A stretch of 64,000 bases of DNA from Candidatus Omnitrophota bacterium (GTDB taxonomy: Bacteria > Omnitrophota > Gorgyraeia > JABMRG01 > JAFGKX01): NCBI GenBank assembly GCA_043797125.1, contig JAZDPX010000045.1, positions 72,338 to 136,337 on the forward strand. The letters run 5' to 3'. Both the position numbers and the translations under genes were made by a program. The stretch's first letter is position 1; every line of letters starts with the position of its first letter. Below the pieces are notes generated by a model. That model was not told the DNA's origin, made no database searches, and saw nothing but the letters and a program-made list of their open reading frames with translations. This document shows, one piece after another, positions 15,001 to 63,821 of the stretch.

Positions 15001-18000
15001 TGCGTGAGCTATGGGCCCCCCGCGATAAAGCCTGAAACTATTTTTTACTACGATAATATCGATTTTTTTACCGACCCGGATTAGTTCTTCGCGGGCCTGA
15101 TCTTCTTTCAGCCCCAGTTTATCTGCCATGGTTTTTACATCAAAACCTTCGAGTTCGGCAGTGCGGTGAATTTTCCCCCGCACGCGCCCAAGTCTTTCTT
15201 GCATGTGGTTTTCCCACCAATCATATATATTAATTCTATACATTCTGTTTTCATCTATTATCTTCTTAAGCTCTTCGTTGCTCACTTCGTGTACGAGCTC
15301 TTTATCCGCCATGTCGGGAGATTCTTCCCGGCCGAGGCGCAATGCCGCCCAAAGCATGCGAATCCTCCTCCAAAGCCTAAGCCATGCTCCGCCAATCTGT
15401 GTCATCAGCGTGCCTGCTATGGCAATGCCGCTTGCGTTTGGCTTATTCGCGCTTATCTCCTTTGCAACTTCGCTCTTTTTTGGCTCTCCGGTTTTTTCTA
15501 CAATGCCTGTTTCTTCAAGAAATTCCGCGCCTGCGGGCGGCCACTGAGCGTTGTAGATTCCGTTGCCGTGCGTGCCTGTGCCGATTTTACCGACTATGTC
15601 AGTGCCGTATTCTTTCAAGTAGGGGACAGAATTACCTGTGCAGTATTGCAAATAGGTTCCAACTTCTATTTCCTCTTCTGTAAGCCTGGCTGTATCATAT
15701 CCATGCCTTTTAACTTCTTTTATAAAATTATCCCTGTCTTCGAGAAGGAGCGCACCATGCGCTATAAGAGCGTCTTTTGGGCTTAAGAATGTGCCTAGCG
15801 GGAAGTTATCCCCTGCCTCATTGTTATAGGTTGTTCCGCCCCTTACAAAACCTTTGTAATTTTGCGGCAGGAATCCCTTTTTCCTTAACCGCTCTTCAGA
15901 TTCTCCAAACCTATCCAAGCCAAGCGGGAGGGCAATATGGAAAACAGTTTCTTCGCCTGCGATACAATCTTGGGCAAACGCAATGTAGCCTTCGGCGAAT
16001 GCCGCGCTTATAAAATAACTTAAATCAATATCTATCCCGTTTTCTGCCATTTGCTTATGCGCCTCAAGCAGCGGATAAACGACTTCGGGCATGCAAAGAT
16101 ACAAAAGGATCTTTTGCGGCGCTCGGTTATATTTTGCTTCGATGTCCTGTCTTATCTTTTTAACTTTATCCGTGCCGATTAAATCAATGCTCTTATTAAC
16201 AACAGCCATAACTCCAGGGCTATTTACCCCCGGCTCGAATTGCATATAAGGCAGGGCTTTTTTAAAATCATCTTTGAATACCCCTAATGCTTTGTTTTTG
16301 ATTTCGTCAGGAGCGGGGTTTTCGTCGGAGGCAAGGATTAAAAGGCTATCTGCTACAGAATAATAAAAGTGGTTTTTAACATCATTGCTTTTTAGAATAT
16401 CTATTAGCGTGCCCAAAACGCTGATTTTGCCTTGTTCTGCAGCATAACGCAAGCCATAAGAGGCAACTGTAGCGCCCATAGAAACTAATTTACGCAGTGT
16501 TTTATAAATATTTGGGTTATCAATATCTATAAGAACTCTGAGGGCAGCAAAATCAAAGTCCTGATTTTTGCCTTCTGCGGTGGGATTTATCAATACATCT
16601 GTATCCATATATTTTAAAAGCTGCCGCATTTTTGCATCGTCTTTAAGGTCCGCGCTTGCTGCCCTTATTGTGGCCCAGGCATTGCCTTTCAGGATTAAAT
16701 TAATAAGCTCCCCCCGAGCAGCAACATTGCCTGCGTTAACCATAGTCGCTAAGGCGTTTGCAGAAGGGCTGTCTGTAAAAAGATGTTCTAAGGCAATATT
16801 TTCTGCAAACTTATCCGGGTTAATCTCTTTTAAAGCCTGTTTAGCGGTCTTCCTGGCTCTGCCATAGGTTGCATTTTCTAAAACAGATACAGCCTCTGCC
16901 TCCCCTAAGTTGCCTAACTTAACAAGGCAGGAAAAAGCTGTGGGGTTATCAAAGCCTGTTAGTTTATCAATCCAATAAATGGCATCTAACTTATTGGGTG
17001 TGTATTTAAGAAGTGGTGCGGCGTCAATCTGTTTTAATTTTTCTTCGATATACCCAGAACCGCCTCTGGCCATATCAATTAAGCTCCCCATGATGCCCAA
17101 GCTAATCATTGGCTCGGTATCTGCTCTCTCATAGTATAAATTAATAAGGTCATCCGCTGCTTGTGCGTCTTCGGCAGCGCGTTTGAGCAAATCAGTTATG
17201 TCTTTGTCCAGCATCGGCACATTGCTAATAGAAACAGGGGCTGTTTTACTCAACGAGGCTTGCGGCTTTTTATTAAAATATTGGTCTATTCTCTTTAGCG
17301 TTTCGTCGGGATTGCGTACTAGATATGTGAGGGCAGCGAATATCCCTGCGCCTATTATAAATATCTTTACAAATGGATTCTTCAACATGCTTTCTGCCAT
17401 ATCCGCTTCGCATATTGTCGCAGGAAGAGGCTCGCGTAATGCCTTGGCTGCTCTGTTAAGTTTGCGCTGCAGCCCTTTGCTATGAGAAATAATTTTATGG
17501 TCTGCGTAGGGGTCAAGAATATGCTTTGCTTCTTCCAGAAGCAGAAGCGCTATATCTTCGTCTGTGATTTTTTCGCTTGCGAAGAGCTTCTCCCCAAGCC
17601 ATATGGCTGTGTCACCTTTTTTAGAGACTCCGCGCCTTGTGTGCGCGTATGGGCCTTCGTGGTGGAGGGTCAGGCGGTTCTTTACTATAATGACGTTTAT
17701 TGGTTGTGCAATTTGAATTAGTCTTTGGCGGATTTGGTCTTGGGTAAGGTTTAGTTTTTTGGCAAGTTTTTTTACGTTTAGGGCATCGCTATTAGCAACA
17801 GCTTCGAGCGCTTCAGGTGAGCGTATACGTACAAGCGCCCTATGAACAGCTTTCTTCTGTTTCTCATCTGCTTCGTGCGAAATCTCTTTCTTCACCATGT
17901 CCGGGGACTGCCCGGGTTTCTTGCCCGTCTTCAAAACATCCTTTATCACCTTTACGGGACTACGCAGAAAATACTTTAAGCTAATACCTGCGGGCAGAGA

Positions 18001-21000
18001 TTTCATAAATGCGTCTGCGTTTTTGTAGGGCCTGTTTTCAGGCGCCATTTTGCTGAATATTACATCTAAAATTTCCCTGGCGCTCATGCCGTTGGTAAGA
18101 TAGCCTGTTTTCTTAAAAAACATCGCGGGTAGCATATGTTCATTGCCTTTTGTTTTTATCCCCAAGTCTGTCGCTATAAGGCCGTATAGAAGATCCTTAT
18201 AGGTTTTTTTATCTATTTTGCATTCTTCAACAGCGCCGACATCGATTAGATAGACCTTTATCTTCCCATCTTTTCTTACTATTCTGAAATTCCCGCCGTG
18301 CGGGTCAGCAAGATAAAGGCCTTTGCCAAACAACTGAACCATTAAAAAGTCAAATATTGTCTTTTTTAACTTTATAAGCTCTGCCTCTGTAAAACCCGCT
18401 TTGGCCTTAAGTTCTTCTTTGTTGTCTAAATCGCTGCCTGCAATTTTTTCCGCGTAAAGCACCGTCTCGGTGGAGTCTTCTCTTATTTTTGGGACTAAAA
18501 ATTCTATTTTTTCGCCCGAAGAAAACTTGTAGCCATTCTCTTTGTTTATTTCTGCAAGCTGCTTTTCCAGCTTCTTTGTGTTTTCTATTTCTCTCTTAAA
18601 GTCCGCGTCCCTTCCCAGGCCTTCCGATGCCCTGCTTTCAAACCCGTGCGGGATTTTTAACCCTTTCTTTCTTAATGAAGTGCATACGCGCCTGAAGAAG
18701 GCTGTCTCCTCATCTAAATAGTGCTGGACATCCGGCCTCTTAATTTTCAGGGCAAGCTCTTCATTGTTATAATCTTCGGCCTCAAAGACAATTTTTATCT
18801 TTGCCGAGCCCAGCGGTTTTCCTATTCTTTTTATCTTGCCCTGCTGGTTTGTGTTTTTAAGTGTTTCAAACGCCACTTTTTTGGTTAATGGGTTTGCTTT
18901 TGAAGACAGTGCGGCAAAGGCGTTTCTTAAAGCCTGCGGAATCCTCACATCCTCCGAAAAAACGAGAATCTGCGCAACCTGTATGCCTATAACATCCAGC
19001 GATTCCATAACCTTCGGAATGATTTCATAATACGCATGGCTGGTTTGGCCTTCCTGTTTTAATAAAAAGGCAAAGTTTACAAACAGGGCCTTGACAACCT
19101 TAAGCCTTTTTGCGCCATCAGCTTCTTGCATAATGGTTAAAAATATCTTTTTTAAATCCCCCTGCTTTATGTCCTTGCCCAGTTCTGTCTTTTTTATAAT
19201 AAAATTGTATACTGTATCGATAAGTTTCATAAAAATCTTCTCATTTTTTAATATACCGTCTTTGCCTAAAAACATCTCCCCGATGAGAAGCTCTCTTGTG
19301 CCTTCTCCGGCATGCGGATAGGCCGCGCTTGGTGATATGGAATAAATATCTTTTAAGGGCTCAAAGGACACACCCAGAAGTTCCTCGTATTCCCGCATGA
19401 ATAGTGGCATTTGGCTTATCCCCGCTATCCACAGAACAAAATCCTTCTTTTCCTCGCACGACATCCGCTCAAATAAAACCTTGAATTTCTCCTCATAGTA
19501 AACATTCTTAATCTTGTCTTCGTCATCCAAAATACCCTTTTTCTCCGCATAGAATAGGCCTGATATCTGTTCATATTCCTGGAACGTCTCGACCTTTTCT
19601 AAAACGCTTTTTAAAATGTCATCGCGCGAGTAGCTCTGGTCGGGGAAATACTTTTTGATTAACTCTATCTCATCATTTATATGCATATCGGGCTTAAGGG
19701 CCTTTTCCAGTTCCAGCGCCTTCAGGGAATACTTGTCTCTAAAATAGGCATTATAGAATTCCCCTAGCAGATTTTGCAGATGTATAACTTTTTCTGTTTC
19801 GCTAATGCCTATATCGCTTAGTACGTTTTCTGCTATCATCTCAAGGTATTTGTCTCTTAGTGGCTGCGAGCGCGGCAGCAGGCTAAGAATATAATTTATC
19901 TTGCCCTCAACGGCTATCTCTGCTTCTATTTTAGCTTCTATATTTTGCTCAAGAGCCGTTGCTATGGCTGCGTCCGGTTGGGCAAGCTTTTGCTGGTGGT
20001 TAAAATCAAAATAAAATATCCCGATTTTCGAAACACCAGCGTGTTTTCTTTTCCTTGCAATATATGACAGAATGGCCTTTCTTAAAAAAATCAGTTCCGC
20101 GTTAGTATAAATTACTCCTATTATCTCCTCCAAATAGTAATTTTTAATAAGCGGAACAAATGCTGCTATTTTGCCGGCTTCTAACGCCTCTTGGGCGCCT
20201 TCGGTGTCTAAGCCTTTTTTATCCATGATTTTTTTAATTTTCTTTACATATCTGCTTTTTAAAAAGTTGTGTTCAAAAAGCCATAATTCAGCCGGGGATA
20301 TTGACAAGTTAAACAGGTTCGCTAAAATAGAAACGTACCCACTGGTTTTCTCGTAAACATATTTGGTTTTCCTAACAACGTAGTCAAGAAAAGCGTGCCT
20401 TTTTTTCCCTCGCAGCTCTTTTAGATAGGTTTTAATCGTTTCTTTTAGCGCTAAATGAACATACGCGCCCACACCTATACCGCCTTCTTTATCTCCCTTT
20501 GCCTTTCTCTGCAGATAAAGAAAAAGGCTCGCGTTTGTTGTAGCAAGTTTATCATCCGAAACCATATGCGGTAATACTTGTTCGAGCTTTTTCATAAATT
20601 CTTTGTCTTCTTTTGCGATTTCATTGAACGATTGCAGATCATACGGATTAAGCTGCTGGTGGTTCTTTTTAATCTCTCTTGCCAATAATGAAAAAAGGAC
20701 AAAATTTCTAAAATAACTTGGGGGAAGTTGCTTGAGCGTAATTTTAATAAGGCCTTCAAAACTTATGCTTGAGTTTAGAATAAAGCCGAATAACCCTTCG
20801 AAGAAATCCTGCCTGCTTCCTGCAAAATCTGTTCTGTCCCCGTAAAAGGGGAGGTTGAACATCTTTTGAAAAAACGGTTCATATTGCATGGAAAATGCTG
20901 TGTTTGGGTTTGCTTTCTTTTCCGTCATGCTAATATTGGACTCCAAACGATCCCTGCCTGCTTTTGAAAGAGGGTTTTTTCTCTTGAATTGTTTTTGCCC

Positions 21001-24000
21001 TAAGTCCAGTTTGTAGCATAGCTCATCCAGCTTTTCCTTTGTTGCTGGGGTGCCTATGGTCTCAAAAAACACCCTTATGCATAAAGGCAGGATAACTTCT
21101 GACGGCTCTGTTACATTTTGCATGCCATCAACTAAGAATGATGTTTCAAATATATCTCTGCCGGAAAAGGCCCGTAAATCAACTTTCTTTTTAGGCGTTA
21201 AGTTATATTTCTCTTTATATAGTTTTGCTAAGTATGCGCTATTTAAAAATTCAACTAATACCCTTCTGTCCTTTATGCCCCTTGCCTTGTATGCATCAAA
21301 AAGGTCTTTTGTTAAGAGTCCGCCGCTGTTAAAAAAACGTATCATAATCTTTGTTTGCTGGCCTAGAGTGTTTGGGTTTACCTCTATGCCAGCTTGTTTA
21401 AAAATTTCTATTAGCTGTTTATCAAATGCTTCGGGCGTGGGAACGCAGCTTTTAAGTTCGTATAACAGCCTTTCTGATAGCGCCATGGGGGTTGTTGCGT
21501 GTTTATTGGATGAATAATAATACTGCAAAAGCTGCTCTAGTGTGTTTATGCGTTCTTCTTTGGCTTTTGGCTCTTTCCAAAAATCAAACATCATAATAAT
21601 GGTTTCGTCCAAGTTCCATGGGAGGGTGGCGCTCAAAAACAGATCCAATAACTGCGTTTTGCCTGTTTTTAATTCCTCCAAAGCATCTGTTGCTATTGTT
21701 TCATAAATCATTTTTTTATCAGCTTTATCTGTTATGCGCTCCAGCATCTTTGCAAAAAAGGTCTCCATGGATTTTTTGTCGAGGCTTTCCTCGCGATAGT
21801 GTTTGTATAAAAATTCAAAAACCGTTTTGCGCACGGCCGTTCTGGAATAAACCAAAAACGGATATTTCATAAGAAAATCAGCTTTTGCTTTATTGTCTAA
21901 TCCTGTATCTTCTAAAAGCCTGTTCGTTAATAAAGAAAGATCGTTGAAGCCGACTAAAAGCCCCTCTTGCCTGCTCGCGGTTGTCATAATGTCTTCCCAG
22001 TCTTGCCATGAAAGCTTATCGCTTATAGCAAAGGCCCCTTCCCAAATAAATTCTATATAAGTAAGCAGGGACTCCCCGACAAAAGAAAACGTAATGGTAT
22101 CCTGGGGCATTAGAAAGTTCTGCGCTGTTTGCAGATATGCGATTATGTCGTTTTTGTTGTTCAGCTTTCCTTTTAATGTATTTTTAAGCCGATTTTCCAA
22201 TATTTCCCGGAAGATACGCCTACTATCATCATGCCTTGAAGAGTGCTGAGAAGGCTTCGTTTCTATTTGGGGCCATGAATCTTTAAGAAGCTTAAATTTT
22301 ACCATTTCCGCCATTGTCGTGCCAAGGCTTTGTTTTATTGTCGCGAAGAAATTTTTATAATCCTGCCTTAATTGCGCATATTTTTGCTGCGTAAGTATTG
22401 TGTCGTAAACTCCATATGCCTCGGGCCTCATGCGTTTAAATGTGAAAACTTTGTACGGCGTAGGAGGGGTTATGTCCTCAAGAAGAAGCTTGGTTATATC
22501 CTGGTAATCATCGTTGTTGCCGCATATTAACGCGAAAATCAAAGCCGGCAGATAATGCTTCTCATTATCTTTTGTGGTTATGTCGTTCGGGACTGCTTTT
22601 AACGCGCTATCAAGGCCCTCAACTAATATTTCAAAAATATGCTCTGGAAAAGACGCGGCTTTCTCCAATAGTTGTGTCAGCTCATTTATGTTTTTTACCG
22701 AGTAAGAGCTCTCTATTGTTTCCAGCAGCAGCGTTTTATTGGATAGCTGCCCTAGGGCCTTTTGTGAAAATAGATGTTTTGTCTTTGTGTTTATCCAGTT
22801 ACTGCTGTCTAAAATTTCTTTTATCAACTTAATCCTTTTCTCATCCGGAAGGTGCACGTCAATTAAATCAACCGCTGTTCTAAGAAGATCCGGGAGTTTA
22901 TCCAGCTTGCTTAATATATCAAAGGTCTTGGCAGCTTCTAAGACATTGTAGCTTGCTGAGTTCATTAGCGTCAAAGCCCAGACATCTGCGTCTATTTCCT
23001 GCGCAAATTTTTCTTTAAGGGTGGTCCCCTTTCCTTGGACCATGTGCCGTATCTCGTGCGCCAGAATAAAGGCTATTACGTCTTTGGTTAAGCATTCGTT
23101 TTTCTGGAAATGCTTTAAAAGCCCCAGGGAAATGCATACAATTTTATGGTTGGTGATAGTAAATGCCGTTACCTCATCTGTTTCTAACAGATATAGCGCT
23201 GCGTCGGCCCATTCTTTTCCTGTTAAATGGGCGCAGAGCTTCTGAAATATCTCGTTGATTTCTTGATAAAGGCCGGAAAACGGCGAGGCTTCGCCATCTT
23301 CTATAAGACAGTGCATTCTCTTCAAAATATCTATTGTGGACCTTTTTCCATTTGCATCGGTGGCAGCAGTTAATCCTGCTATATCTACATCTTCAGGCAA
23401 GTCTGGTGAGCGTATTCGCGTAGGCGCCTTAGGAGCATCTCTTGGGCCTTTTTCTTCTTTGGTAATTGTGTATGTTTCTCTTTTGTCCAGCACGCTCTTA
23501 AGCTCTTCGTTGCGCTCCTGGTGCGGGATCTGTTTCTTGGCCATATCCGGGGATTGCTCTGGGTTACCAGTTTGCAGCGTTGTAGCGCGGGCAGGCTGCC
23601 CAACAACTATTTCTAATTTGTAGTCCTTAAGATCCAGTGGCACTAACAGCGCCTCGCCCAACGCAGGCACAGGGAAGTTTTTCTCTTCTGTTTCTGTTGG
23701 AGGAAGCCACATAAGGTCAAACTGGCCCCTAATTTCAACATTTGCGTTTATTCCTGCGGCCTTAAAGCGCCTAACCATGTATCTATATTGCTTTTTGACT
23801 GCTTCATCTACATGTGCCCTAAATTCCTCTCGCGACTCTTCTGGAATATTAAACATTTCGTACAGCGGGTTATATACGTCCTTCCACCCAAGCACCGCGG
23901 CTCTTTCCTCGCGGCCCGTATAATTAGAAAACTCTGCCGAGCTGCCTATACGCGCAAACGTGCCTTCCATGCCGCTTGCTGCGTCTGTGTCATAAACAAG

Positions 24001-25326
24001 CTCGCATTGTTCGGATGATAAATTGCCTTTAAACATATGCCGAGTTTCATATGCCATGTTGTTATATTTAATAACCGGCATAACAGATTCCATGACCCCT
24101 GAGTCTAACCCCGGCGTTGCAATATCTCTTATTGTAGATATAATATCAACTGCGTAGGCAATATTTGTGTCTATAAGAATCTTTGCTATGTGCTGGTTGT
24201 TGTTCTCTATAATGCTGACTCCTCCGGCGCCTGCTAATTTGCGTTTGCACTCTTCTATAACCGAGGTTTCTGTTGTTATAACTATTCTGCCGGATTGCTC
24301 CTTATCTAAAAAGAAGATCCCGTGGCCCCTCGCCCTACGATTCGGTTTGTACACCAAGGGCAATGCAATATCGCCCCAAAGCGCCCTCTTTATTGTGTCT
24401 TTAAAGTCTTTGATGTCTGCCGGGTTTACAAAAAGTGCATTTTGCCCGTCGTCGTCTCCAAACGTGACAAAAAATTCCGGCTGCTGAATTGGGCCGCTTC
24501 TAAAAAAGTTTCTCTGCTGGTATTTATGATTAAATCTATTTCGCATTTGTAGAAACGTAAGCCGCATAGCTGGCGGCAGGTTTGGGAAGGGGTTTGAGAT
24601 CTTCTCTGTCTGCGGAATCTGTTTCTTGGGCGTTTTTAGCACAATCTTGTTTAAAGGGATGCTCGGCTCGTATGCTGTTTTGCCTGTCGTTTCCCCGCTT
24701 ATGGCTTCTGCGCTCTCGCCCCGGCCTTTTTCTGTTTTTGCGTTAATCGCTTCTTCAAAAAGGTCTTGCACGTTTTCATTTTCGCACGCAAGCGGCGCAG
24801 CAAGGCTGCTTTGCATCGCCGTCATAATATCCCCATAGCCCGGCAATGCGCCTTGCATTCTTTGCTCATAAAGCCTCTCGCAGTCGCCATCTCCGAGATT
24901 TGGGCATATTACGATATAGGAGATGTCTTTTTGCTTTAAGATATTTGTTATCGCGCGGGTATGGAAGCCGCCTGTTACCAACACGCTTTTTACGCTACCG
25001 GTTCTATCCATCGCTCGCAATGTGTTTTCAATTAACGCAACGTCTCTTTTTGTGGCTAATTCGTAATATTCTTTTGCGTTGTTTATCGCTTCCTGGTTTA
25101 TCTGCGTTGTTAAAATATAAGGATTTATGGACAGGCCGCATTCCGGCATGTGTTTGCTTAAAAATGTTTTTATGTTAGCTATGTTTGTGTGTTCTGTGTC
25201 ATTATTAATGGAGGCGAGGCGCTCGTTGGTGAGTTTAAGCGAAAATAAATCGTTAAGCAGATTTATTGCTTTTGAGAATTTAACAAGCTCGCGCTGGGTG
25301 TTGTTTTGAGAAATGGCGGTAAGCAT
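1..25326 (-). CDS. giant multidomain protein, 3'-partial (continues beyond left window edge); >8,400 codons in window; helical-repeat arrays, M48-like HEXXH module, internal duplications
   Basis: Minus-strand frame with codon starts at positions congruent to 1 mod 3 is open at every hand-translated site. Sites checked: 1-300, 3361-3615, 6541-6720, 11701-11991, 14881-15183, 23011-23253, 23821-24559, 25258-25510. The provided track lists no long minus ORF in 1..25262, as expected for a frame open to the window edge. The plus-strand ORFs here are low-complexity antisense artefacts. First in-frame ATG (reverse complement) is at 25324-25326, and an in-frame TAG lies just upstream at ~25499-25501. 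Confidence 0.6.
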   Translation of the reverse strand, partial: MLTAISQNNTQRELVKFSKAINLLNDLFSLKLTNERLASINNDTEHTNIANIKTFLSKHMPECGLSINPYILTTQINQEAINNAKEYYELATKRDVALIENTLRAMDRTGSVKSVLVTGGFHTRAITNILKQKDISYIVICPNLGDGDCERLYEQRMQGALPGYGDIMTAMQSSLAAPLACENENVQDLFEEAINAKTEKGRGESAEAISGETTGKTAYEPSIPLNKIVLKTPKKQIPQTEKISNPFPNLPPAMRLTFLQMRNRFNHKYQQRNFFRSGPIQQPEFFVTFGDDDGQNALFVNPADIKDFKDTIKRALWGDIALPLVYKPNRRARGHGIFFLDKEQSGRIVITTETSVIEECKRKLAGAGGVSIIENNNQHIAKILIDTNIAYAVDIISTIRDIATPGLDSGVMESVMPVIKYNNMAYETRHMFKGNLSSEQCELVYDTDAASGMEGTFARIGSSAEFSNYTGREERAAVLGWKDVYNPLYEMFNIPEESREEFRAHVDEAVKKQYRYMVRRFKAAGINANVEIRGQFDLMWLPPTETEEKNFPVPALGEALLVPLDLKDYKLEIVVGQPARATTLQTGNPEQSPDMAKKQIPHQERNEELKSVLDKRETYTITKEEKGPRDAPKAPTRIRSPDLPEDVDIAGLTAATDANGKRSTIDILKRMHCLIEDGEASPFSGLYQEINEIFQKLCAHLTGKEWADAALYLLETDEVTAFTITNHKIVCISLGLLKHFQKNECLTKDVIAFILAHEIRHMVQGKGTTLKEKFAQEIDADVWALTLMNSASYNVLEAAKTFDILSKLDKLPDLLRTAVDLIDVHLPDEKRIKLIKEILDSSNWINTKTKHLFSQKALGQLSNKTLLLETIESSYSVKNINELTQLLEKAASFPEHIFEILVEGLDSALKAVPNDITTKDNEKHYLPALIFALICGNNDDYQDITKLLLEDITPPTPYKVFTFKRMRPEAYGVYDTILTQQKYAQLRQDYKNFFATIKQSLGTTMAEMVKFKLLKDSWPQIETKPSQHSSRHDDSRRIFREILENRLKNTLKGKLNNKNDIIAYLQTAQNFLMPQDTITFSFVGESLLTYIEFIWEGAFAISDKLSWQDWEDIMTTASRQEGLLVGFNDLSLLTNRLLEDTGLDNKAKADFLMKYPFLVYSRTAVRKTVFEFLYKHYREESLDKKSMETFFAKMLERITDKADKKMIYETIATDALEELKTGKTQLLDLFLSATLPWNLDETIIMMFDFWKEPKAKEERINTLEQLLQYYYSSNKHATTPMALSERLLYELKSCVPTPEAFDKQLIEIFKQAGIEVNPNTLGQQTKIMIRFFNSGGLLTKDLFDAYKARGIKDRRVLVEFLNSAYLAKLYKEKYNLTPKKKVDLRAFSGRDIFETSFLVDGMQNVTEPSEVILPLCIRVFFETIGTPATKEKLDELCYKLDLGQKQFKRKNPLSKAGRDRLESNISMTEKKANPNTAFSMQYEPFFQKMFNLPFYGDRTDFAGSRQDFFEGLFGFILNSSISFEGLIKITLKQLPPSYFRNFVLFSLLAREIKKNHQQLNPYDLQSFNEIAKEDKEFMKKLEQVLPHMVSDDKLATTNASLFLYLQRKAKGDKEGGIGVGAYVHLALKETIKTYLKELRGKKRHAFLDYVVRKTKYVYEKTSGYVSILANLFNLSISPAELWLFEHNFLKSRYVKKIKKIMDKKGLDTEGAQEALEAGKIAAFVPLIKNYYLEEIIGVIYTNAELIFLRKAILSYIARKRKHAGVSKIGIFYFDFNHQQKLAQPDAAIATALEQNIEAKIEAEIAVEGKINYILSLLPRSQPLRDKYLEMIAENVLSDIGISETEKVIHLQNLLGEFYNAYFRDKYSLKALELEKALKPDMHINDEIELIKKYFPDQSYSRDDILKSVLEKVETFQEYEQISGLFYAEKKGILDDEDKIKNVYYEEKFKVLFERMSCEEKKDFVLWIAGISQMPLFMREYEELLGVSFEPLKDIYSISPSAAYPHAGEGTRELLIGEMFLGKDGILKNEKIFMKLIDTVYNFIIKKTELGKDIKQGDLKKIFLTIMQEADGAKRLKVVKALFVNFAFLLKQEGQTSHAYYEIIPKVMESLDVIGIQVAQILVFSEDVRIPQALRNAFAALSSKANPLTKKVAFETLKNTNQQGKIKRIGKPLGSAKIKIVFEAEDYNNEELALKIKRPDVQHYLDEETAFFRRVCTSLRKKGLKIPHGFESRASEGLGRDADFKREIENTKKLEKQLAEINKENGYKFSSGEKIEFLVPKIREDSTETVLYAEKIAGSDLDNKEELKAKAGFTEAELIKLKKTIFDFLMVQLFGKGLYLADPHGGNFRIVRKDGKIKVYLIDVGAVEECKIDKKTYKDLLYGLIATDLGIKTKGNEHMLPAMFFKKTGYLTNGMSAREILDVIFSKMAPENRPYKNADAFMKSLPAGISLKYFLRSPVKVIKDVLKTGKKPGQSPDMVKKEISHEADEKQKKAVHRALVRIRSPEALEAVANSDALNVKKLAKKLNLTQDQIRQRLIQIAQPINVIIVKNRLTLHHEGPYAHTRRGVSKKGDTAIWLGEKLFASEKITDEDIALLLLEEAKHILDPYADHKIISHSKGLQRKLNRAAKALREPLPATICEADMAESMLKNPFVKIFIIGAGIFAALTYLVRNPDETLKRIDQYFNKKPQASLSKTAPVSISNVPMLDKDITDLLKRAAEDAQAADDLINLYYERADTEPMISLGIMGSLIDMARGGSGYIEEKLKQIDAAPLLKYTPNKLDAIYWIDKLTGFDNPTAFSCLVKLGNLGEAEAVSVLENATYGRARKTAKQALKEINPDKFAENIALEHLFTDSPSANALATMVNAGNVAARGELINLILKGNAWATIRAASADLKDDAKMRQLLKYMDTDVLINPTAEGKNQDFDFAALRVLIDIDNPNIYKTLRKLVSMGATVASYGLRYAAEQGKISVLGTLIDILKSNDVKNHFYYSVADSLLILASDENPAPDEIKNKALGVFKDDFKKALPYMQFEPGVNSPGVMAVVNKSIDLIGTDKVKKIRQDIEAKYNRAPQKILLYLCMPEVVYPLLEAHKQMAENGIDIDLSYFISAAFAEGYIAFAQDCIAGEETVFHIALPLGLDRFGESEERLRKKGFLPQNYKGFVRGGTTYNNEAGDNFPLGTFLSPKDALIAHGALLLEDRDNFIKEVKRHGYDTARLTEEEIEVGTYLQYCTGNSVPYLKEYGTDIVGKIGTGTHGNGIYNAQWPPAGAEFLEETGIVEKTGEPKKSEVAKEISANKPNASGIAIAGTLMTQIGGAWLRLWRRIRMLWAALRLGREESPDMADKELVHEVSNEELKKIIDENRMYRINIYDWWENHMQERLGRVRGKIHRTAELEGFDVKTMADKLGLKEDQAREELIRVGKKIDIIVVKNSFRLYRGGPIAHARRGVSRKDDRAIWIGQNLLLSADIDDTDIARLLLEEAKHILAPKLEHKDIAHNQALLKRLEEKAMFFPRGAEEETAEYRGKQIDEIKIENTPGIGPVRLVHILDKYTFGDYILANQHFIGPSIYYYDKEDINRHAAKLKILAGIKEDMSWLEFKWYLERNAQEAKDVFRCVNNQTSLKTKLLRFLKILPGNAPTKSKNDVKNLLAENNQVIIEDIWDILLDARALEEEDYDLIYDIISRFGAEGKRKILDEIMHKIFSPGEMNKIYYTNMIRIIAKALDRHNEAIKRDFLGGVKKGLRVYYSQTRNEDVLAKTEEGDVSVPRGAYVLKQILPHINDQTTMEELFEMVKPLLTYNTRGSDNPGPREREIGLWLCKNSLRRLEDDELKLFLLEQACSCLSYSYRGSTRKDMGPGMMDILAAELIAETMPYLAFSNQETLMPKLIENLGYAELVDRGSRIDKITKIASKFNNWQKANILYAGNFSKAKAPSWIKEYLPDQRPVDKKEEYRLVADIAASIETRGLAGRMADCGVNAEEAKKLLTKEIPLRYQDMLTADMAATTAVAMAESRIGIDKIRSLLMDTIPQQYNNADLCYYMIGAIKAAAIMAKGGIDIEIIERAIGEKWPIQCRGNTSLAARIIEQAGIRAVGLIKSGVADKIVSAAKDAAKENISKGAVESLFIYDLVLLYHDINRTIPAEEAPEEASLPDYSMNKDKAFRAIGLIGNDKDTEYGWSYAYETAWSELVQRYALMDEIKIGETILQLIKLGVRFEEIKTIFTIGLKGNERLAKSVSRIAESEIKRYGLISPRDKTDLTTLPCSDTPFAYEKGDEDAKALIMLLFCEIPLKYREIPVEAAKAAAGLVWRGAEITKVKNLFLENQGTYGKVQKFNKILDSGAIYKIADKIEKLKPTGSSKTIARVIDLLFFQMPDNYDYADRFADAVETLEKIASSDIIDKIATKLNWLVSEKEARAKLAELLFFRLQTDPLCRQFQGPSGRNETSDVAMRAHVYAYEVAEGLGEITGSGVINKIAEKLGKLIGEEKAKAKTTELILSEMPFYDHVSAYETAPLLEQIAALDIIDKISAKLSTRLGEEEAKTKVIDFLLFKLPKLYGKNFYRIAKAAGSIISEAGFSFESTAEFLLETPNPHLDTTAKTIELIEELAESDAIAKIVTELRNHLNALTGKASEEKAKAKTIDPLLFKVFLKYDNNSHEILNAILQMLKTGVSISAIQECLENFASADKSTSLETIKILGNIAGSEQISKIRSALKQQLDDFGATNTIELMLTRWLPHEYSSVTCEKGPGQDDLSREINKAINLASSDPAASKLIELLFIKLPSCKYGINVCDLVIKMIKAGASIEQTEQLLTEEMPKMYGAQAKEAVPGLLELGQRFEKSNLKRFLEIVIKRLPRELSNFTASIESFMRGMQTIPAQRLLQYIDSRDKKRAMDIMLLDNNHQSIFEHIELFMNALEDKQEDKKKKSEKTLFINNVFIQVASESSPGNNAPPSHVQFWQIVKAACDLKEKHGNWREEIRSIELDNQAFKELKIELLEKNRFLESWEQFQRLEMLISIIGANDLEKALNLYRFSGTEDGRKIYAYYHKLLTHQAVKSGYSKTIEKMILDPREFLDLEDTNVPLSNHIKKISRLLELEYVDIGAEELLLGLILGKYDHLQVLQPLSTTIDISDVDTEIKTIKGGSLLQRLASYGAEEGILREVLVKYFKQKQESDDYKTQTNGTANGINKILTLLQKGQTTFGTIVDQTKNAKFGVEELKGCGLILPRYTISLMRKSDPDTIMTGSELSNCMSLSSGKNTHYIFNPNSQILILSKETASADGIRYNKILATSVVTADREITRRISELEEIIKSVAPSSINPSQYDEAIEKLRDLFDAEKLFGSDFMDKISKEVYISLDNVEGDANFASSNKMAEKIVETAYIKFFKEYFEERGTTLRGRPINKSKVIVGTRHSKFLHSLDGKLDNYFLTQILNVYSDKADSTVNFLPIEDSYKPTPAKELNGVKPLSPEDLLEISYIESKAFKDIALGGNHIAGIEMELLGIMYNEALKGERRKNLSLGYFKDGKLLGYVIAHVGYDKEREEEIVCISDFAVLHKKGKAAGALMKELFKSIRGTAKMFKEKYEKDIKIIFDSTPDAQGSYWLLMPRKDDSEATKLKKQQRLAEAGLIIESPAEADTQPGKDFIKFVLRVDLDAPEQNYKNSRELVPVAQIGKDGEFTEIDLARQTATIKDLKGDKHPVKLELQSDETLKALITAVETLIKDKPAHRKLLEMFLKLREKSPPALYTFDTLIEDAFGTALPEQNTILLYKNLLNNPNALLHEIEEYVCKSNNIQFKLQDDTLVIAKSKLYILKSITKIKLPAPILEWLNIKLRQNPENKTHYYLRALAKATLGETDEKLTKAIKQQAGTEKAYVQINQLKFIKDDESEAMVDVYERAPGSAYGEKLGTLTLYQRTMDHPLRMVQAGIDALGIKDSERNWLLYFMFRPLQYAQPKFYIYNKLIKGLTSFASPEHRLIALYEDFADEPIAAWHELMKYLIKAGKLKIKFKHSHWGKNKIVVEDSDKKEKAEINITGEALSIALKNPKESDYLLKALQREIFKDSDKKLIRKIQHKQNPPAEDVSILSLINSSCCWFGKLKIAADKIARPEAKIKTLTNLAIAQAKAGLKEEAKKTFDDVKTTIEENDGITYKISYLAELAITQAQVGLKEEAKKTIIAAENLLAKTKEGLFKQEGYESLAAAQIETGLFDDAKNNINETINASRKFALLIRLAIKQAKEGLAEKAESTLEEAKDIIKEEPVYSADFEDVPTGWANLGAAQAQIGLTKEAKESFAKAQSLLDSKGVLAYGVETHWGYFVKAQIRAGFFDDAKYTMDKHNAGGVSISDIASAKMQTGLLDEVKDMIDKMHYTNDKFELLINLIAKQVEKGLVKDAINTLKDAQGVMHATSRASYINKLAELATAQALVGLTEEAEATIFKARMALDDISGSSKLKARVILAGAQMHAKLFEKAKDAIEDVIDSYDEAKIDADFILALSSFTNHTPALIKRFTEPKKLKELLDAPRQKEKAKAQKLFSQALLLGFWNEQFARQDCIKLAYRAAEACLNGLGFKKESISLLTKTESKTLKLLVSVNKQRDYQRQKQFIHDFLEIIMLWYQLFPGDANLYNLTTIFDNYDASTVSASRKLSAILTLLQEIENKCNYIGLFSKLSREPKVFIYQLELIAKYKHSLDLLDDPQKIARLDLTNMDEASSKTSIEEVICDSLSDLLGGEISKTKRKLHSDATEALADADFLVDLFNFRQAYSKESEAAYTRLTELARVYLLKGTQGIIEHKASHRLAFKQAPHHVRDKFSELAKLKETASPEAPDDNLSIFDAWFKTNFENYKRHIGEYSASFRESSVASEEDIQKLENKLKDLYAGAADVQLKEAILSKDINELKKLRFDKENLDENKRNGAIGLLGKLNIIKDNSISKQAMGIMDEIGLIEQCPLDEQAQEVRKLYERCENSLADIITGLNTLYQMLQSQNKPQSIIAADMIGLLKTLQKLPTSRQKSKEAVSAEVGFDLKETLKIGRYGASGQGNCQRSTSAGENKHSLTSFIGDAQELIIITKNAAMDTLGLVLLHGVYLESGEFVYVKEKLYTNYNHLTGAQQKAVSKLTQGIANLLNIKILDCYGEGEKETFTVTIPESYVPRYLDSLGGQVKAASAKATITSSVIEPQVKIGNPASARIGKKGGARGIIYRNGKRYLSIQDIELERYGFAPYELAQVEIKALDKNRVETLMRSAQALAETPLRDKEIWGKFLELFKNIPEKDKPEFCSFKPSAEHPTLDYFGHAEPKDKLLVLHENLLEYPLALLHEIKEYVCKYYKIEFEVEKKEQGGGATITIKGIGKIEIAGDNYSRLNNRLINMPQEYKTHYFLLSIQEALLPKQNTQLREKIRKEQVIAQEKLTDIYVGNFSKGALEETPTAQHAKKPVTKNKKKILEHIATERSLTDVAKTAETKYKLVIDDEAATQYKSLVIDKKNKRLAMSCFKALKKISSTGNNIGKIQSKKRTGFKGIKYGIGAKEEPVVPRAIRLTGDLRILFAPVKVYGKQVMLIFGIKTHKELEGGGARNEYDQFTAAAKAAADFKQGYIDLIKNDLKEYIAKNNITKAQALEGRLQEIAKMIFVEQQRPADNRPEFIRIDNVSGISKIDRKDYENMGFPQYDTTTSDNIAGRIGKETMLILETFKFTKPDKNQAKIEICKPVGADEIIEGEPTKVVSLGTLFFNKTGIDPKTALRDSVEKAGLMLEEDKQFVFKITDFYEETPALYNFAYADLIKDLFGFALNDERNLIVLHEKLVGNPVALFHELCHYFIGYEPGRQKLLELVYDRENAAIIVRARKDSSQEFEEIGRARISPETLLSIANEDKEAWPEYGQWHKNPHHLLRILQRQIFGKYDVELTRWIKLNKDLHGFRKIEDSLYEKFRKDRSFIAQLGHGRKSFDLPGIELDLSKEETKKRLHAQHCLVRAICKRELGDYKGAETEIKEAIKAYPDEEFLYWKALDIYEEAKDYERLNEMYEKIAEKFGQFSKLHVRMLEAYEWYSPREENVQRIIKHSGLLVAKAAEEEDICLGYCARITIAIRSEQYNMARYYIQQAQKGSFSKEFALETDFYLAATELLEGKTDEARARLENIFKETLENMELKEAMRFISSIYGNVHSAELLELLLSEISGKEGEKEKQKASVRMKYCILSMLHSIEPDNETILKLKAVVGGIFEEASHIQECLEKAETEPDARGKINIIETTLKKYPDNTILKDEIAKICLNEGTAAFDAKDLDTAVEFFRKALEVKPEDRVIIDKAAQAFLDKAKQHSQQNHFTEAVTILEEAFKHCKGKPVINELKTTYVNAAEALLKDKDWNILARSDKEDFKRAKEYFEKAHELEKAKELDLQDSTIKTRLDKVKAHYEKVFELDNMFREAETLMAETRTREEKVNALVGKAPTLEGKDNTAGSRYPLVLNA
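5900..7060 (-). other. array of ~36-40-aa alpha-helical hairpin repeats (TPR-like) within the giant ORF
   Basis: Translation of 6541-6720 gives ...FALLIRLAIKQAKEGLAEKAESTLEEAKDIIKEE.... The DNA periodicity (gcctctgcttcttc...gggcctgggc motifs) recurs across ~5.9-7.1 kb. Confidence 0.5.
11400..12300 (-). other. HEAT/armadillo-like ~55-aa helical repeats within the giant ORF (recurrent GEE[EK]AKAK / IDKI..KL motif)
   Basis: Translation of 11701-11991 gives ...AEKLGKLIGEEKAKAKTTELILSEMPFYDHVSAYETAPLLEQIAALDIIDKISAKLSTRLGEEEAKTKVIDFLL.... The DNA repeats visibly (ttcttcttcgccaa / ttttcgcc motifs). Confidence 0.45.
23044..23058 (-). other. HEIRH (HEXXH) zinc-metallopeptidase motif inside the giant ORF, with upstream NAF-like and GLL elements in an M48/HtpX-like arrangement
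   Basis: Careful translation of 23011-23253 gives ...EVTAFTITNHKIVCISLGLLKHFQKNECLTKDVIAFILAHEIRHMVQGKG. Confidence 0.5.
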
Positions 25327-26477
25327 TTTCTCTTGCGCTGCTTCGATTTCTTCGAAAAGCGCAAGGTGGTCGATGCGCTTGGAGAGCGCAAGGTAGTCGA
25401 TGTAGGCGAATAAATCATTGTGGGCTGTGGGCTGTGGGCTGTGGGCTTGTTGGCTGGTGACTTTGTGACCTGGTGACCTGGTGACTCCGCCAGTCCTGCT
25501 AGATAACTATAAAATTCCTCGTCCGTTATTTTGCCCAGCTTAAATTCCAAGCTTTTCGAGAGAAGCTCCTGTAATTTATCTTTCTCGAGGGTTTCTGAAA
25601 GTTCCTTTATCAACGCCTCCCTTTGTTCCTGGGCTTTGTTAAAATCTATTGCCTTCTCTTTTTCGACAAGCGCGATGAATGCCTGCAAATTTTTATATTT
25701 TGTTAAATCTGTTTTTGCTTTGTTGGAATATTTTTCTAATTGCTGGGCGTATTCTGAAAGCGTGATCGTTTTGTTGCTGTAATCATCGTTTGCCCTGTCA
25801 AGCGCAAGCATATCCTTTGCGTACGCTTCGGCTTTTAGCCTGTTTAAATCCGACCTTAAAAGCGCCGCGAAAGAAATTACATCCTGCTTGTTTAGCTGGT
25901 ATTTTTTATTACAATCAAGATGTTCAAGGTATAAGCCTCTATCCTCAACGCCTGTAGGCACTAAATATTTATCCCTGTTGGTTATCTTGTAAAATTCCGC
26001 CCCTGTAAAAAGCGCTGTTTTTACAAATGCTTGCGCAACCTGCTTTTTTCTTTCTGTATCCGGGAATTTATCGTAAAAGGATGTATCAAGCTCTCCGGAG
26101 GCGCCTTCAAGGCATAAAAGATGAAGGTTGTGCTTTTGCGCCAGGTTATCTATTATGCCTGCTATGTTAAATTGGGCGCAAGCATCCGCATGGCGGTCCT
26201 GGATGTGGACAATTAACTTTTGCTGGCTGCCTTTATATGTTTCTAAGACTCTGCCGTGTTTTTGGGATACTGACAAATCCAGCGGCGTAAGCGCAAGGCC
26301 GGTTTCTGCTTCTTTTGTTTCTTCATTAACATATCTTTGCGCGTGGGAGGTTTTCTTAAACAGGGTCTGGCCGTCAAAGCCGTAAGCAGGCGTGTTTGTT
26401 GTGAGAAAACATATTATTAGTATTATTGAGATAATCCTAATAATAAATTTCTTATGAGGCTTATGTACGTCTATCAT
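25263..26477 (-). CDS. signal-anchored secreted/membrane module (404 aa); probable 5' portion of the giant gene, separated from it by a frameshift inside a heptamer repeat
   Basis: ATG at 26477 with N-terminal hydrophobic helix (MIDVHKPHKKFIIRIISIILIICFLTTNTPAYG). Protein-like sequence continues until the repeat tract at 25420-25489. After the tract, this frame becomes low-complexity junk while the giant frame becomes protein-like. Confidence 0.55.
   Translation of the reverse strand: MIDVHKPHKKFIIRIISIILIICFLTTNTPAYGFDGQTLFKKTSHAQRYVNEETKEAETGLALTPLDLSVSQKHGRVLETYKGSQQKLIVHIQDRHADACAQFNIAGIIDNLAQKHNLHLLCLEGASGELDTSFYDKFPDTERKKQVAQAFVKTALFTGAEFYKITNRDKYLVPTGVEDRGLYLEHLDCNKKYQLNKQDVISFAALLRSDLNRLKAEAYAKDMLALDRANDDYSNKTITLSEYAQQLEKYSNKAKTDLTKYKNLQAFIALVEKEKAIDFNKAQEQREALIKELSETLEKDKLQELLSKSLEFKLGKITDEEFYSYLAGLAESPGHQVTKSPANKPTAHSPQPTMIYSPTSTTLRSPSASTTLRFSKKSKQRKRKCLPPFLKTTPSASLLNSQKQ
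25420..25489. repeat. (GTGGGCT)4 heptanucleotide tandem repeat followed by degenerate 7/8-mer units (TGGTGAC-like); coding phase changes here
   Basis: Four perfect GTGGGCT copies at 25420-25447, then tgttggc, tggtgac, tttgtgac, ctggtgac, ctggtgac. Both reading frames through the tract encode AHSPQPT-like peptide. Confidence 0.8.
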
Positions 26478-53994: not shown

Positions 53995-54115
53995 CATGAC
54001 AAACTTCAAAACAACAATTTTGTTATTTGATATTTGTAATTTGTCATTCATTTGTCATTTGTGCTTTGGCATTTGTCATTAACTTATAAAGCAAAATATT
54101 TTTATTACTTTTCAC

Positions 54116-58533: not shown

Positions 58534-58540
58534 TTAATGG

Positions 58541-58606
58541 TCTATAGTCTATAGTCAATAGTCTATGGGAATTGTTTAACCATTGACCATCGACCATTGA
58601 CTATAG
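58541..58606. repeat. ~66-bp imperfect palindrome in the rny-ymdB spacer (tggtctatagtc...gactatagacca, with internal tagtcaatag repeats)
   Basis: Outer arms are perfect 12-bp inverted repeats. Possible terminator/operator. Confidence 0.5.
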
Positions 58607-58625
58607 ACCAACATAGGAGTTTTTC

Positions 58626-60636: not shown

Positions 60637-60649
60637 GGCTCCGCTACGG
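60610..60649 (+). repeat. DnaA-box-plus-hairpin element copy B (TTATCCACAACC GTAGCGGAGCCTT AAGGCTCCGCTAC GG)
   Basis: Same architecture as copy A, with compensatory gcaggc/gcctgc to ggagcc/ggctcc changes that keep the stem perfect. Confidence 0.8.
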
Positions 60650-60677
60650 TTACAATGACACAGATCAGGGGGGCGCG

Positions 60678-61009
60678 ATGAAAGAGAAGGAGCAGGATTT
60701 TGAAGGCGCGATAAAAAAGCTGGAAGATATTGTCGAGGAACTGGAAGGCGGGGATGTATCTCTCAGCGACGCTATCAAAAATATGAAGAGGGCATGAAGC
60801 TTTCCCAGCTTTGCACAAAAAAACTGCACGACATCCAAAAAAGGATAGAGGTGCTTGTAAAAGATTCATCCGGCAATCTCTCGGCAAGAGAATTCCAGGC
60901 GGAAAAAGCTCAGGAGTCTAAAGAGAGCAAGCCTGCCTATCCGGCAGGTAAACCCGCGCAGGATAAAAAGCAAAAGAAGTCGAAAGGGGCGGAGGGGCTT
61001 TTGTTTTGA
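60678..61009 (+). pseudogene. xseB: exodeoxyribonuclease VII small subunit, interrupted by a -1 frameshift at an A5 homopolymer (60776-60780)
   Basis: Frame 1 gives MKEKEQDFEGAIKKLEDIVEELEGGDVSLSDAIKN then MKRA*. The XseB consensus continues in the adjacent frame (YEEGMKLSQLCTKKLHDIQKRIEVL...). One extra A restores a single ORF. Confidence 0.7.
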
Positions 61010-61881
61010 AACCCGGCGCCTATTTAAAGAATAAACAAAGGCTGATAGACGACAAGTTAAACGCGCTTATTCCGGATGCAAAAAGTTTTCCGCCGCTGAT
61101 TTATCAGGCAATGCGCTACAGCATGGCAGACGGCAAAAGAATAAGGCCTATTCTTTGCATGGCCTGTGCTAAAATGTGCGCAGCCAGCGAAAAAGATTCT
61201 CTTCTTTGCGCCTGCGCAATTGAAATGATACATACGTATTCTCTGATACACGATGATCTGCCATGCATGGATAACGATGACTACAGAAGGGGCAGGCCTT
61301 CGTGTCATAAAAAATTCGATGAAGCAACGGCTGTTTTGGCCGGGGACGCATTAATGACGCTCGCTTATAATATATTGGCAGGCGCCACAAAAGGCCCCGG
61401 CATAAATAACCGTTTAATAAAAGTGCTGTCAGAGGCAACCGGCTCAAAAGGCATGATAGGCGGCCAGGTTGTGGACATAGGTTGCGCCCACAGCCCACAG
61501 CCCACCCCATACCATTCGCTTCGCTCAGGTACGGGGCAGGCAGCCCACAGACCAATGGATTTACCGACGATCGAGTACATAAACACCCATAAAACCGGCG
61601 CCTTGATAGCTGCCTCATGCAGGTTAGGCGCAATTATAGCGAGAGCCTCCAAGCGAAAAGAACAGGCAATTTTTAAATTCGGCGAATATATTGGATTTGC
61701 ATTTCAGGTTGTGGATGACATGCTGGATAACGAGGGCATGGCTAGGGTTATCGGTAAAAAGCGCTCGCATGTAAGGGCAAAAGATTTAATAGAAAAGGCA
61801 AAGGCCCAGCTTTCTACGTTTGGCAAAGATAAAAAGCCATTGCTGGATTTAGCGGATTTTATTTTAGAAAGAAAACAATAA
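61006..61881 (+). CDS. ispA: (2E,6E)-farnesyl/geranyl diphosphate synthase
   Basis: DDxxD motifs (LIHDDLPCMDNDDYRRG; VVDDMLD). xseB-ispA-dxs synteny. Contains a ~19-aa in-frame insertion carrying heptamer repeats. Confidence 0.85.
   Translation: MKPGAYLKNKQRLIDDKLNALIPDAKSFPPLIYQAMRYSMADGKRIRPILCMACAKMCAASEKDSLLCACAIEMIHTYSLIHDDLPCMDNDDYRRGRPSCHKKFDEATAVLAGDALMTLAYNILAGATKGPGINNRLIKVLSEATGSKGMIGGQVVDIGCAHSPQPTPYHSLRSGTGQAAHRPMDLPTIEYINTHKTGALIAASCRLGAIIARASKRKEQAIFKFGEYIGFAFQVVDDMLDNEGMARVIGKKRSHVRAKDLIEKAKAQLSTFGKDKKPLLDLADFILERKQ
61485..61507. repeat. GCCCACA heptamer tract (GCCCACAGCCCACAGCCCACCCC) inside ispA, part of a ~57-nt in-frame insertion translated as ...CAHSPQPTPYHSLRSGTGQAAHRPM...
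   Basis: Same heptamer, same encoded AHSPQPT peptide, as the giant-gene junction repeat at 25420-25447 (reverse complement). Confidence 0.7.
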
Positions 61882-63783: not shown

Positions 63784-63821
63784 TTATCCACAACCGTAGC
63801 GGAGCCTTAAGGCTCCGCTAC
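63784..63821 (+). repeat. DnaA-box-plus-hairpin element copy C, just 3' of the dxs stop
   Basis: TTATCCACAACCGTAGCGGAGCCTTAAGGCTCCGCTAC. Confidence 0.8.

Follow-up and report, generated by a model that had tools for sequence, protein, structure and literature searches.

The gene ispA of an uncultivated Candidatus Omnitrophota bacterium raises the question of how a repeat whose unit is not a multiple of three nucleotides comes to lie in frame inside an essential enzyme. Within a 64,000-nucleotide stretch of its genome (contig JAZDPX010000045.1; hereafter the window), tandem copies of the heptamer GCCCACA occur both in ispA, which encodes a short-chain polyprenyl diphosphate synthase, and in an unrelated giant gene whose reading frame is broken near the repeat (Table 1). 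A preliminary description, made from the DNA letters and their translations, proposed that one mobile or expanding microsatellite had entered both genes. The analysis reported here makes it probable that the ispA segment is instead a lineage-specific, in-frame expansion of a surface loop, to which heptamer slippage and a short palindrome both contributed and on which selection acts as a filter, and that the tract in the giant gene is an independent case.

The ispA gene sits within an xseA-xseB-ispA-dxs cluster, and its product matches the PF00348 polyprenyl synthetase profile with a score of 169.3 bits (E 1.2e-49), the gathering cut-off being 27; an identical protein (100% identity) is present at NCBI in a Candidatus Omnitrophota metagenome-assembled genome (MAG). 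Residues D83, D84, D89, D237, D238, K196, and T197 are invariant in an alignment of 30 homologues and D241 is nearly so (at least 90%), and both Asp-rich motifs (DDxxxxD and DDxxD) and the substrate-site KT pair are intact. An AlphaFold model calculated from a 30-sequence alignment (mean pLDDT 91.9, pTM 0.89) predicts an all-helical prenyltransferase fold that the insert leaves undisturbed. Low confidence is confined to residues ~161-185 (pLDDT 49-55 for 161-180), a predicted non-helical connection with helices 150-161 and 186-211 on either side. In the model the enzyme is normal apart from the insert, which forms a disordered loop at its surface, and IspA of the window is probably functional despite it. 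Between the flanking motifs GGQVVD and HKTG this loop measures 37 aa, vs. 16-18 aa in most of the 120 best homologues and 25 aa in seven close relatives; only P0002 (35 aa) and P0117 (38 aa) carry loops of similar length. The ~19 extra residues reported in the preliminary description thus correspond to an excess of 19-21 residues over the standard loop and of 12 over the nearest relatives. Comparison with IspA orthologues, in which conservation of the insert would have spoken for an origin other than repeats, found that it varies among relatives in both sequence and length.

Two kinds of sequence make up the insert. The heptamer is present as announced, with 2.86 perfect tandem copies followed, beyond a palindrome, by a single further copy; the lag-7 periodicity of the loop is significant against shuffles (P = 0.0014), and the 13-mer GCCCACAGCCCAC occurs five times in the window vs. 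0.05 expected, all five times inside the ispA and giant-gene tracts. As a description of the whole insert the heptamer holds for 20 of the ~78 inserted nt and fails for the core, since the next 42 nt form an imperfect GC-rich palindrome, here termed P3. It is composed of a 5′ arm (GCCCACCCCATACC, 61500-61513) overlapping the final heptamer copy, a 14-nt loop (ATTCGCTTCGCTCA), and a 3′ arm (GGTACGGGGCAGGC, 61528-61541). The peptide AHSPQPT, whose identical phase in ispA and the giant gene had been taken to link the two, carries no information in this respect: three 7-nt units are read through all three phases, so that (GCCCACA)n yields a cyclic permutation of AHSPQPT in every frame, as is seen in both frames of the giant-gene tract. 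That the insert is merely an assembly or sequencing artefact is very improbable. In at least one place a conserved gene of the assembly does have a 1-nt indel, but the insert is in frame, has no stop codons, and has counterparts at the same loop, either heptamers or the palindrome core, in six independent assemblies drawn from NCBI, ENA, JGI, and Logan.

Heptamers recur at this one IspA loop in relatives, with a different unit in each: ACCGAAC in four copies (locus L209), GAAACCA in five degenerate copies (L208), AAAGTTN in five copies (L203), and ATTCAAA in 2.3 copies (L002), beside GCCCACA in 2.9 copies in the window. Lag-7 periodicity reaches P ≤ 0.0014 in four of these five heptamer-bearing loops, and the 25-aa loop class stands about 7 aa (21 nt) above the 16-18-aa class. 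The closest comparison is provided by L002 (CP070655.1) and L212, whose ispA genes share 86% amino acid and 91% nucleotide identity and differ by exactly two 21-nt indels. The first lies in the IspA loop, where AAAATTC is present in two copies vs. five; the second is a palindrome, GCCTGCCTACCGGCAGGC, near the ispA C-terminus, where the site is filled in L002 and empty in L212. These differences show both processes at work over short times, and show that an essential gene keeps only three-unit, in-frame steps.

The loop reflects a habit of the clade at large. Tandem Repeats Finder (TRF) detects 12 period-7 arrays in the window, 10 of them intergenic or at gene ends; the remaining two, inside genes, are the GCCCACA tracts. 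The units are nearly all distinct (AAAATTC, TTACGCT, AAATTTT, AAACACT, TTTGTCA, GTCTATA, ACCATTG, and others), GCCCACA being the only one met twice, hence none is dominant. Across nine clade loci (154 kb), arrays with at least 2.5 copies reach a density of 22 per 100 kb for period 7 vs. 1.3 (period 6), 4.6 (period 8), and 3.9 (period 9), which makes period 8 the second commonest. Perfect period-7 runs likewise exceed Markov expectation, with 3 vs. 0.1 in the window and 5 vs. 0 in L002. Several spacers of L002 consist wholly of heptamer arrays that extend up to the next start (10843-10915, 14926-14959, 18106-18135, and 20134-20167); the second of these is built of 4.9 copies of AACTGAT, a rotation of TAACTGA, and ends 3 nt before the start codon. 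Loops of other enzymes are affected as well: four copies of ACAAATC form a lineage-specific insertion in the dxs loop of L001, and AAATTCG (4.7 copies) occupies a loop of pyruvate:ferredoxin oxidoreductase in L002, the same loop in L203 holding two palindromes.

Taken together, these patterns suggest a mechanism in which heptamer arrays would be made and resized by replication slippage and in which, 7 not being a multiple of 3, only three-unit changes (21 nt, 7 codons) would survive in an essential gene. Selection would serve purely as a filter, leaving in place those in-frame, stop-free variants that fall in disordered loops or tails; the 21-nt steps and the structure model are what point to this role. 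The IspA loop, which is solvent-exposed and naturally variable in length, would tolerate almost any Pro/Ser/Thr/Gln-rich peptide and might for that reason be hit repeatedly in different lineages.

Further arrays were met in and around the window and in more distant genomes. The AAAYACT-like array at 47527-47583 starts within the last five codons of rplT, so that the C-terminal tail of L20 and its stop codon are repeat-encoded. Octamer arrays occur in the spacer downstream of yidC (CAGAACAT and TCTGATAA, 37259-37346) and over the first codons of the annotated gyrB open reading frame (ORF) (GAAGAAAA on the coding strand, 31885-31910). A metagenome scan with IspA gave relatives at ≤46% identity, whose loci were reused as controls. 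Some distant ispA loci from metagenomes (L171 and L175, from Ga0233425 contigs, and also L137, L138, and L140) contain still more period-7 arrays, with 18-19 in 21 kb, which indicates that the heptamer phenomenon reaches beyond the close clade.

The second component of the insert, P3, behaves differently from the peptide that it encodes. In the 1.96 Mb of fetched loci, the exact 14-mer GGTACGGGGCAGGC was found outside the window only in L205, twice within the loop of its ispA (protein P0117), as part of a tandemly duplicated 34-nt unit; a 19-mer, CCACAAGGGTACGGGGCAG, is common to the same loop of L206 (P0104) and L205. P0117 and the IspA of the window share 43% identity. Where it is shared, this DNA is translated as GTGQ (window and L206) or as YGAG and VRGRQ (both L205), so that all three frames are used, and conservation of the insert at the protein level was rejected on this ground. 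From these comparisons of sequence, the P3 core is conserved as nucleotides and not as peptide, and because the shared DNA is read in different frames it is best described as a DNA-level element. Heptamers lie on both sides of the palindrome in the window and in L206, and the 3′ arm of P3 terminates in GGCAGGCAG, which is also an arm of the dispersed palindrome P1 described below. Searches of the window and related loci for further P3 copies with one to three mismatches returned none, the other matches being a tRNA T-arm or chance.

The recurrence of one 14-mer, read in different frames, at the same loop of IspA proteins that share only 43% identity could also mean that the hairpin is a functional RNA or DNA signal, acting in RNase processing, pausing, or protein binding to tune dxs expression within an xseB-ispA-dxs transcript, with the peptide as a by-product. 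The predicted folds are stronger than those of shuffled sequences in L205 (z −2.96) and L206 (z −2.69), and the A-C mismatch present in the stems of the window and L205 is absent from that of L206, which has G in place of the A. The fold of the window itself is unexceptional (z −1.18), three sequences are too few for covariation, and no Rfam family matched in the ispA insert. Most relatives are devoid of the element, including P0116, which is 64% identical to P0104 and belongs to the L205/L206 clade, and the 34-nt tandem duplication in L205 resembles repeat dynamics rather than a conserved site. A regulatory role for P3 is accordingly given little credence here, and the reading of P3 as one part of a tolerated loop expansion is retained. 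A search for the hairpin pattern in viral contigs returned two matches, both attributable to chance in GC-rich coding DNA, and a derivation of GGTACGGGGCAGGCAGC from the 341-357 region of 16S rRNA (CCTACGGGAGGCAGCAG) was rejected, as the match lacks support and requires two indels. A separate palindrome with 20-nt arms (GGGTAGATGCGTAGGCTACC...GGTAGCCTACGCATCTACCC) at positions 1-60 of L205 spans the N-terminal 17 codons of ispA as annotated there; the true start of that gene is probably downstream of the annotated one.

Palindromes of two other families, P1 and P2, are plainly dispersed. The four window copies of P1 are intergenic and lie just after genes or a tRNA; P1 is also found in L002, L203, and L204 and is essentially absent outside the clade, where ~1.8 Mb of fetched loci yielded two marginal partial matches (L019 and L098). 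Members of the family also lie in frame, in the xseB tail of the window, in the dxs loop of L203, and at the C-terminus of ispA in L002. P2, which conforms to GTAGCG[C/G]AG[G/C]CTTAAG...CGCTAC, has four window copies, the three at gene ends sharing the 5′ extension TTATCCACAACC. The copy inside dxs lies at a loop where Dxs of the window has 10 extra residues, those beginning at 55775 and 60618 provide mgsA and xseA, respectively, with their last residues and with their stop codons, which they overlap, and that at 63796 lies just past the dxs stop. Both families are perfect palindromes with CCGG or CTTAAG centers and form no loop, and no T-run follows any of their copies. Short palindromes of this sort would usually reside at gene ends and in spacers, with a few becoming established in frame where a loop or tail permits it, their spread being suggested by the identical dispersed copies and by the filled and empty sites.

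Two P1-bearing regions have other features of note. An exact repeat of the final 21 nt of tRNA-Val lies 417 nt downstream (43004-43441), and between the two copies are a P1 palindrome and a small ORF, GIY-YIG-like by eye; following it is an ORF with a LAGLIDADG domain (43626-44381) that overlaps tRNA-Leu. The arrangement looks like a small integrated element at a tRNA gene. The spacer between an epimerase gene and mgsA encodes 6S RNA (54149-54336; Rfam RF00013, 85 bits), upstream of which lie a heptamer array of nine TTTGTCA copies and two P1 palindromes.

Whether the common unit ties ispA to the giant gene is a separate matter. The second GCCCACA tract was confirmed, one nucleotide from its described position of 25420-25447, as four perfect minus-strand copies. 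A scan of genome contigs for GCCCACAGCCCACAGCCCAC returned at least 120 matches with 3-14 copies in unrelated phyla, including Streptomyces, Bacteroidota, and Planctomycetota, with no Omnitrophota among the matches listed; the unit is therefore not a lineage marker. Among these unrelated genomes, arrays of 8-14 copies (L020, L025, L029, L031, L100, and others) are often at contig ends, and several long arrays occur in one Bacteroidota MAG and in Polaribacter. The ispA and giant-gene tracts have no flanking similarity outside the repeat. That both consist of GCCCACA is mildly surprising. Here this is ascribed to a single unit prone to expansion having formed two arrays, and a mobile element is not considered proven by it.

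A single discrete element of the MITE or REP type, heptamers included, could nevertheless have entered both genes, with GCCCACA as its signature. The two coding-region arrays of the window share both unit and orientation relative to translation, a palindrome core is common at the DNA level to the ispA genes of L205 and L206, heptamers flank the palindrome in the window and in L206, and the palindromes P1 and P2 are clearly dispersed and at times in frame inside genes. Such an element is nonetheless improbable: the giant-gene tract adjoins an octamer array instead of a palindrome, the ispA palindrome has no other copy in the window or related loci, the heptamers that relatives have at this IspA loop are of unrelated units, and GCCCACA arrays occur in the unrelated phyla already mentioned. 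Neither a target-site duplication nor a transposase was seen, the latter among ten proteins scanned in the 64-kb window only. What survives of the proposed shared microsatellite is a lineage-specific insert made in part of an expanding heptamer; a mobile GCCCACA element joining both genes is not supported.

The tract in the giant gene is best read as a second, independent case, a heptamer and octamer array that would have arisen in a variable linker. It lies ~350 residues from the N-terminus and contains no palindrome. The 404-aa ORF and the giant frame overlap by ~240 nt around the tracts, and a query spliced over the junction matches P0122 (842 aa, partial), P0123, and P0125 continuously on both sides, which indicates one gene with a truly broken frame. 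The earlier statement that the frame is kept in ispA and lost in the giant gene was therefore correct. The octamer and heptamer arrays encode ~15 residues of the window protein that these homologues lack, within a variable linker. The downstream frame is regained by the addition of 1 nt, to which the gain of one heptamer, the loss of two heptamers, or the loss of one octamer is equivalent, so that a single-unit change in this early, non-triplet repeat switches the frame. Programmed ribosomal frameshifting was rejected as an explanation, GCCCACA not being a slippery site of the form X XXY YYZ that such frameshifting uses. The gene comes after gyrA and tRNA-Glu near a replication-origin neighborhood (32277-37013), with dnaA, dnaN, gyrB, and gyrA on the minus strand and yidC on the plus strand, and GC and AT skew switch sign near 34-36 kb.

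The frame, off by one base, may represent a slipped-strand OFF variant, a pseudogene, or a 1-nt assembly error. A true contingency locus, in which slippage of heptamers or octamers would switch a probably surface-exposed protein ON and OFF and the assembly would have caught the OFF state, is a possibility to be entertained, though not the expected one. The repeat units are non-triplet and lie past an N-terminal hydrophobic segment, the changes that regain the frame include single-unit steps, the homologues are uninterrupted, and the three-unit changes between close relatives establish that arrays change length in this clade. Four copies, on the other hand, are few for a high-rate switch, and a break that needs only one added nucleotide resembles probable assembly indels elsewhere in the window. 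The xseB gene is split in this way, reading ATCAAAAATATG where five relatives have AT(A)AAAAAA(T/G)TA(T/C)G, with one more A; either the assembly has an indel here or xseB is a real pseudogene. The flavoprotein domain CoaC and the DFP domain CoaB (41467-42746) are likewise found in two overlapping frames (overlap 41943-42015) that meet at an A6 run, an arrangement that is ambiguous between a second poly-A deletion, in which case one more A would fuse CoaBC, and separate genes, with coaB starting at its own ATG (~42000). The xseB lesion matches the giant-gene break in size and sign, so that an assembly error and true slipped-strand variation are equally likely explanations of the latter.

Table 1. 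Repeats, palindromes, and affected genes in the window (coordinates in nt of the window; TRF, Tandem Repeats Finder; ORF, open reading frame).
Feature	Position	Strand	Basis
ispA ORF, 291 aa	61006..61881	+	ORF list; short-chain polyprenyl diphosphate synthase
Expanded inter-helix loop of IspA, 26 codons, residues G159-M184 (GCAHSPQPTPYHSLRSGTGQAAHRPM)	61480..61557	+	Alignment, AlphaFold
(GCCCACA) x2.86, perfect tandem heptamer, encodes AHSPQPT	61486..61505	+	TRF score 40, 100% matches; pattern search
P3, imperfect GC-rich palindrome	61500..61541	+	RNA fold gives hairpin
Lone GCCCACA immediately 3′ of the palindrome	61543..61549	+	Pattern search
(GCCCACA) x4 perfect (25419-25446) plus degenerate fifth copy	25419..25456	− (coding strand)	TRF period 7, 5.3 copies
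(GTCACCAG) x4, octamer array adjoining the heptamers	25454..25485	−	TRF period 8, 4.0 copies
404-aa ORF, N-terminal part of giant protein, hydrophobic N-terminal segment	25263..26477	−	ORF list, homologues
Giant-gene open frame, at least 8502 codons, runs off the window	1..25506	−	
P1, perfect palindrome of 20 bp (CCTGCCTGCCGGCAGGCAGG)	43067-43086, 46836-46855, 53928-53947; variant 53975-53994		
P1-type palindrome (GCCTGCCTATCCGGCAGGT), in frame in xseB C-terminal tail (KPAYPAGK)	60931..60949	+	
P2, perfect 28-nt palindrome (AGTAGCGCAGGCTTAAGCCTGCGCTACT), in frame in dxs loop	63333..63360	+	
P2, near-identical copies at gene ends	55775-55804, 60618-60651, 63796-63821		
rny-ymdB spacer filled by two arrays, GTCTATA x3.9 and ACCATTG x4.6	58540..58610	+	TRF
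Other heptamer arrays	26866-26900, 46882-46944, 47527-47647, 54019-54080		TRF
xseB (60677-61009) split by 1-nt poly-A deletion	60771..60795	+	

Several points weigh against the account of ispA favored here. P3 was seen in ispA loops and nowhere else in the fetched DNA, and its place in a dispersed family is suggested by the 9-mer arm that it shares with P1 and by analogy with the other palindromes. Its recurrence at one loop of IspA proteins that have diverged to 43% identity could point to a function tied to that position. The sharing of one unit by both coding arrays is more than chance would readily supply, with ~0.04-0.08 shared pairs expected under random units according to the authors' own estimate (~14 arrays, 91 pairs, and ~1,200-2,300 possible unit classes). 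Active slippage in this organism, whose signature would be copy-number polymorphism among reads, is presumed from assembled sequence, and the retention of IspA enzyme function is predicted from the alignment and the model. With these points considered, in-frame loop expansion under a selective filter is still regarded as the probable origin of the ispA segment.

A broader version of this account is more speculative and, as a whole, unlikely. It would hold that a repeat process strongly biased toward 7 nt and coupled to short palindromes continually rewrites spacers, remodels the loops and tails of essential proteins by three units or by one 21-nt palindrome (IspA, Dxs, XseB, pyruvate:ferredoxin oxidoreductase, and L20), and switches the frame in non-essential giant surface genes. 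Were this true, the recurrence of P3 at the IspA loop would point either to a mechanism of site-specific insertion or to a nucleic-acid signal with a function. The narrower observations already reveal a source of protein length variation in an uncultivated phylum with giant genes and ultra-small cells, in which non-triplet microsatellites and tiny palindromes are filtered into three-unit, in-frame steps within essential enzymes. Dated examples such as the pair of 91% identical genes differing by exactly 21-nt steps could be used to measure rates. For annotation, the warning is that unusual loops and C-terminal tails of low complexity in these MAGs derive from repeats, and that the split of the giant gene is to be read with caution before it is labeled a pseudogene or phase-variable.

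Each element of this picture has a counterpart in systems already described. Simple-sequence contingency loci undergo phase variation by slipped-strand mispairing, as in the CTCTT repeats of Neisseria opa genes and the tetranucleotide repeats of Haemophilus. The giant gene is like them in having an early non-triplet repeat in which a single unit toggles the frame, but its tract is short, and assembly error may account for its break. In ispA the tract cannot switch, because the gene is essential and only three-unit steps are viable. Extragenic palindromes of the REP/BIME type and terminator-like repeats such as SPRITE form a second group of known elements. P1 and P2 resemble these as short GC-rich palindromes situated 13-40 nt past stop codons or overlapping them, but differ in having neither a loop nor a T-run and in that some copies lie inside genes, with no RAYT-type transposase seen in the window.

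The closest parallel to the arrays is provided by the heptanucleotide direct repeats known as STRR in cyanobacteria and by the TAACTGA repeats reported in Beggiatoaceae, Cyanobacteria, and Bacteroidetes (MacGregor 2015, PMC4679880). These STRR/TAACTGA-type repeats and the arrays described here are alike in consisting of tandem 7-nt units in 2 to ~10 copies, with many arrays per genome, and in being mostly intergenic, often ending a few bases before a start codon, with occasional arrays in ORFs, mainly at protein termini. They differ in that the Omnitrophota clade has no dominant unit, with nearly one heptamer per array, and in that its arrays also occupy an internal loop of an essential enzyme, change there in three-unit steps, and are interleaved with GC-rich palindromes. 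In the literature searched, neither heptamer repeats nor in-frame palindromes were found reported for Omnitrophota, and the present findings extend the heptamer phenomenon to this phylum from cyanobacteria, Beggiatoaceae, and Bacteroidetes.

The palindromes, in turn, recall the Rickettsia palindromic elements (RPE), selfish palindromic DNA that inserts into protein-coding genes without disturbing the frame (review: PMC10969869). As with RPE, palindromes in Omnitrophota are dispersed between genes and also lie in frame in housekeeping proteins, at sites compatible with the fold. They are much shorter, at 18-42 nt vs. ~100-150 nt for RPE, are perfect or near-perfect palindromes read in several frames with no conserved peptide, and, in the case of the ispA-type palindrome, have so far been met only in ispA. 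With these differences, the heptamer arrays and in-frame palindromes of the Omnitrophota clade join the STRR-like and RPE-like phenomena already known.

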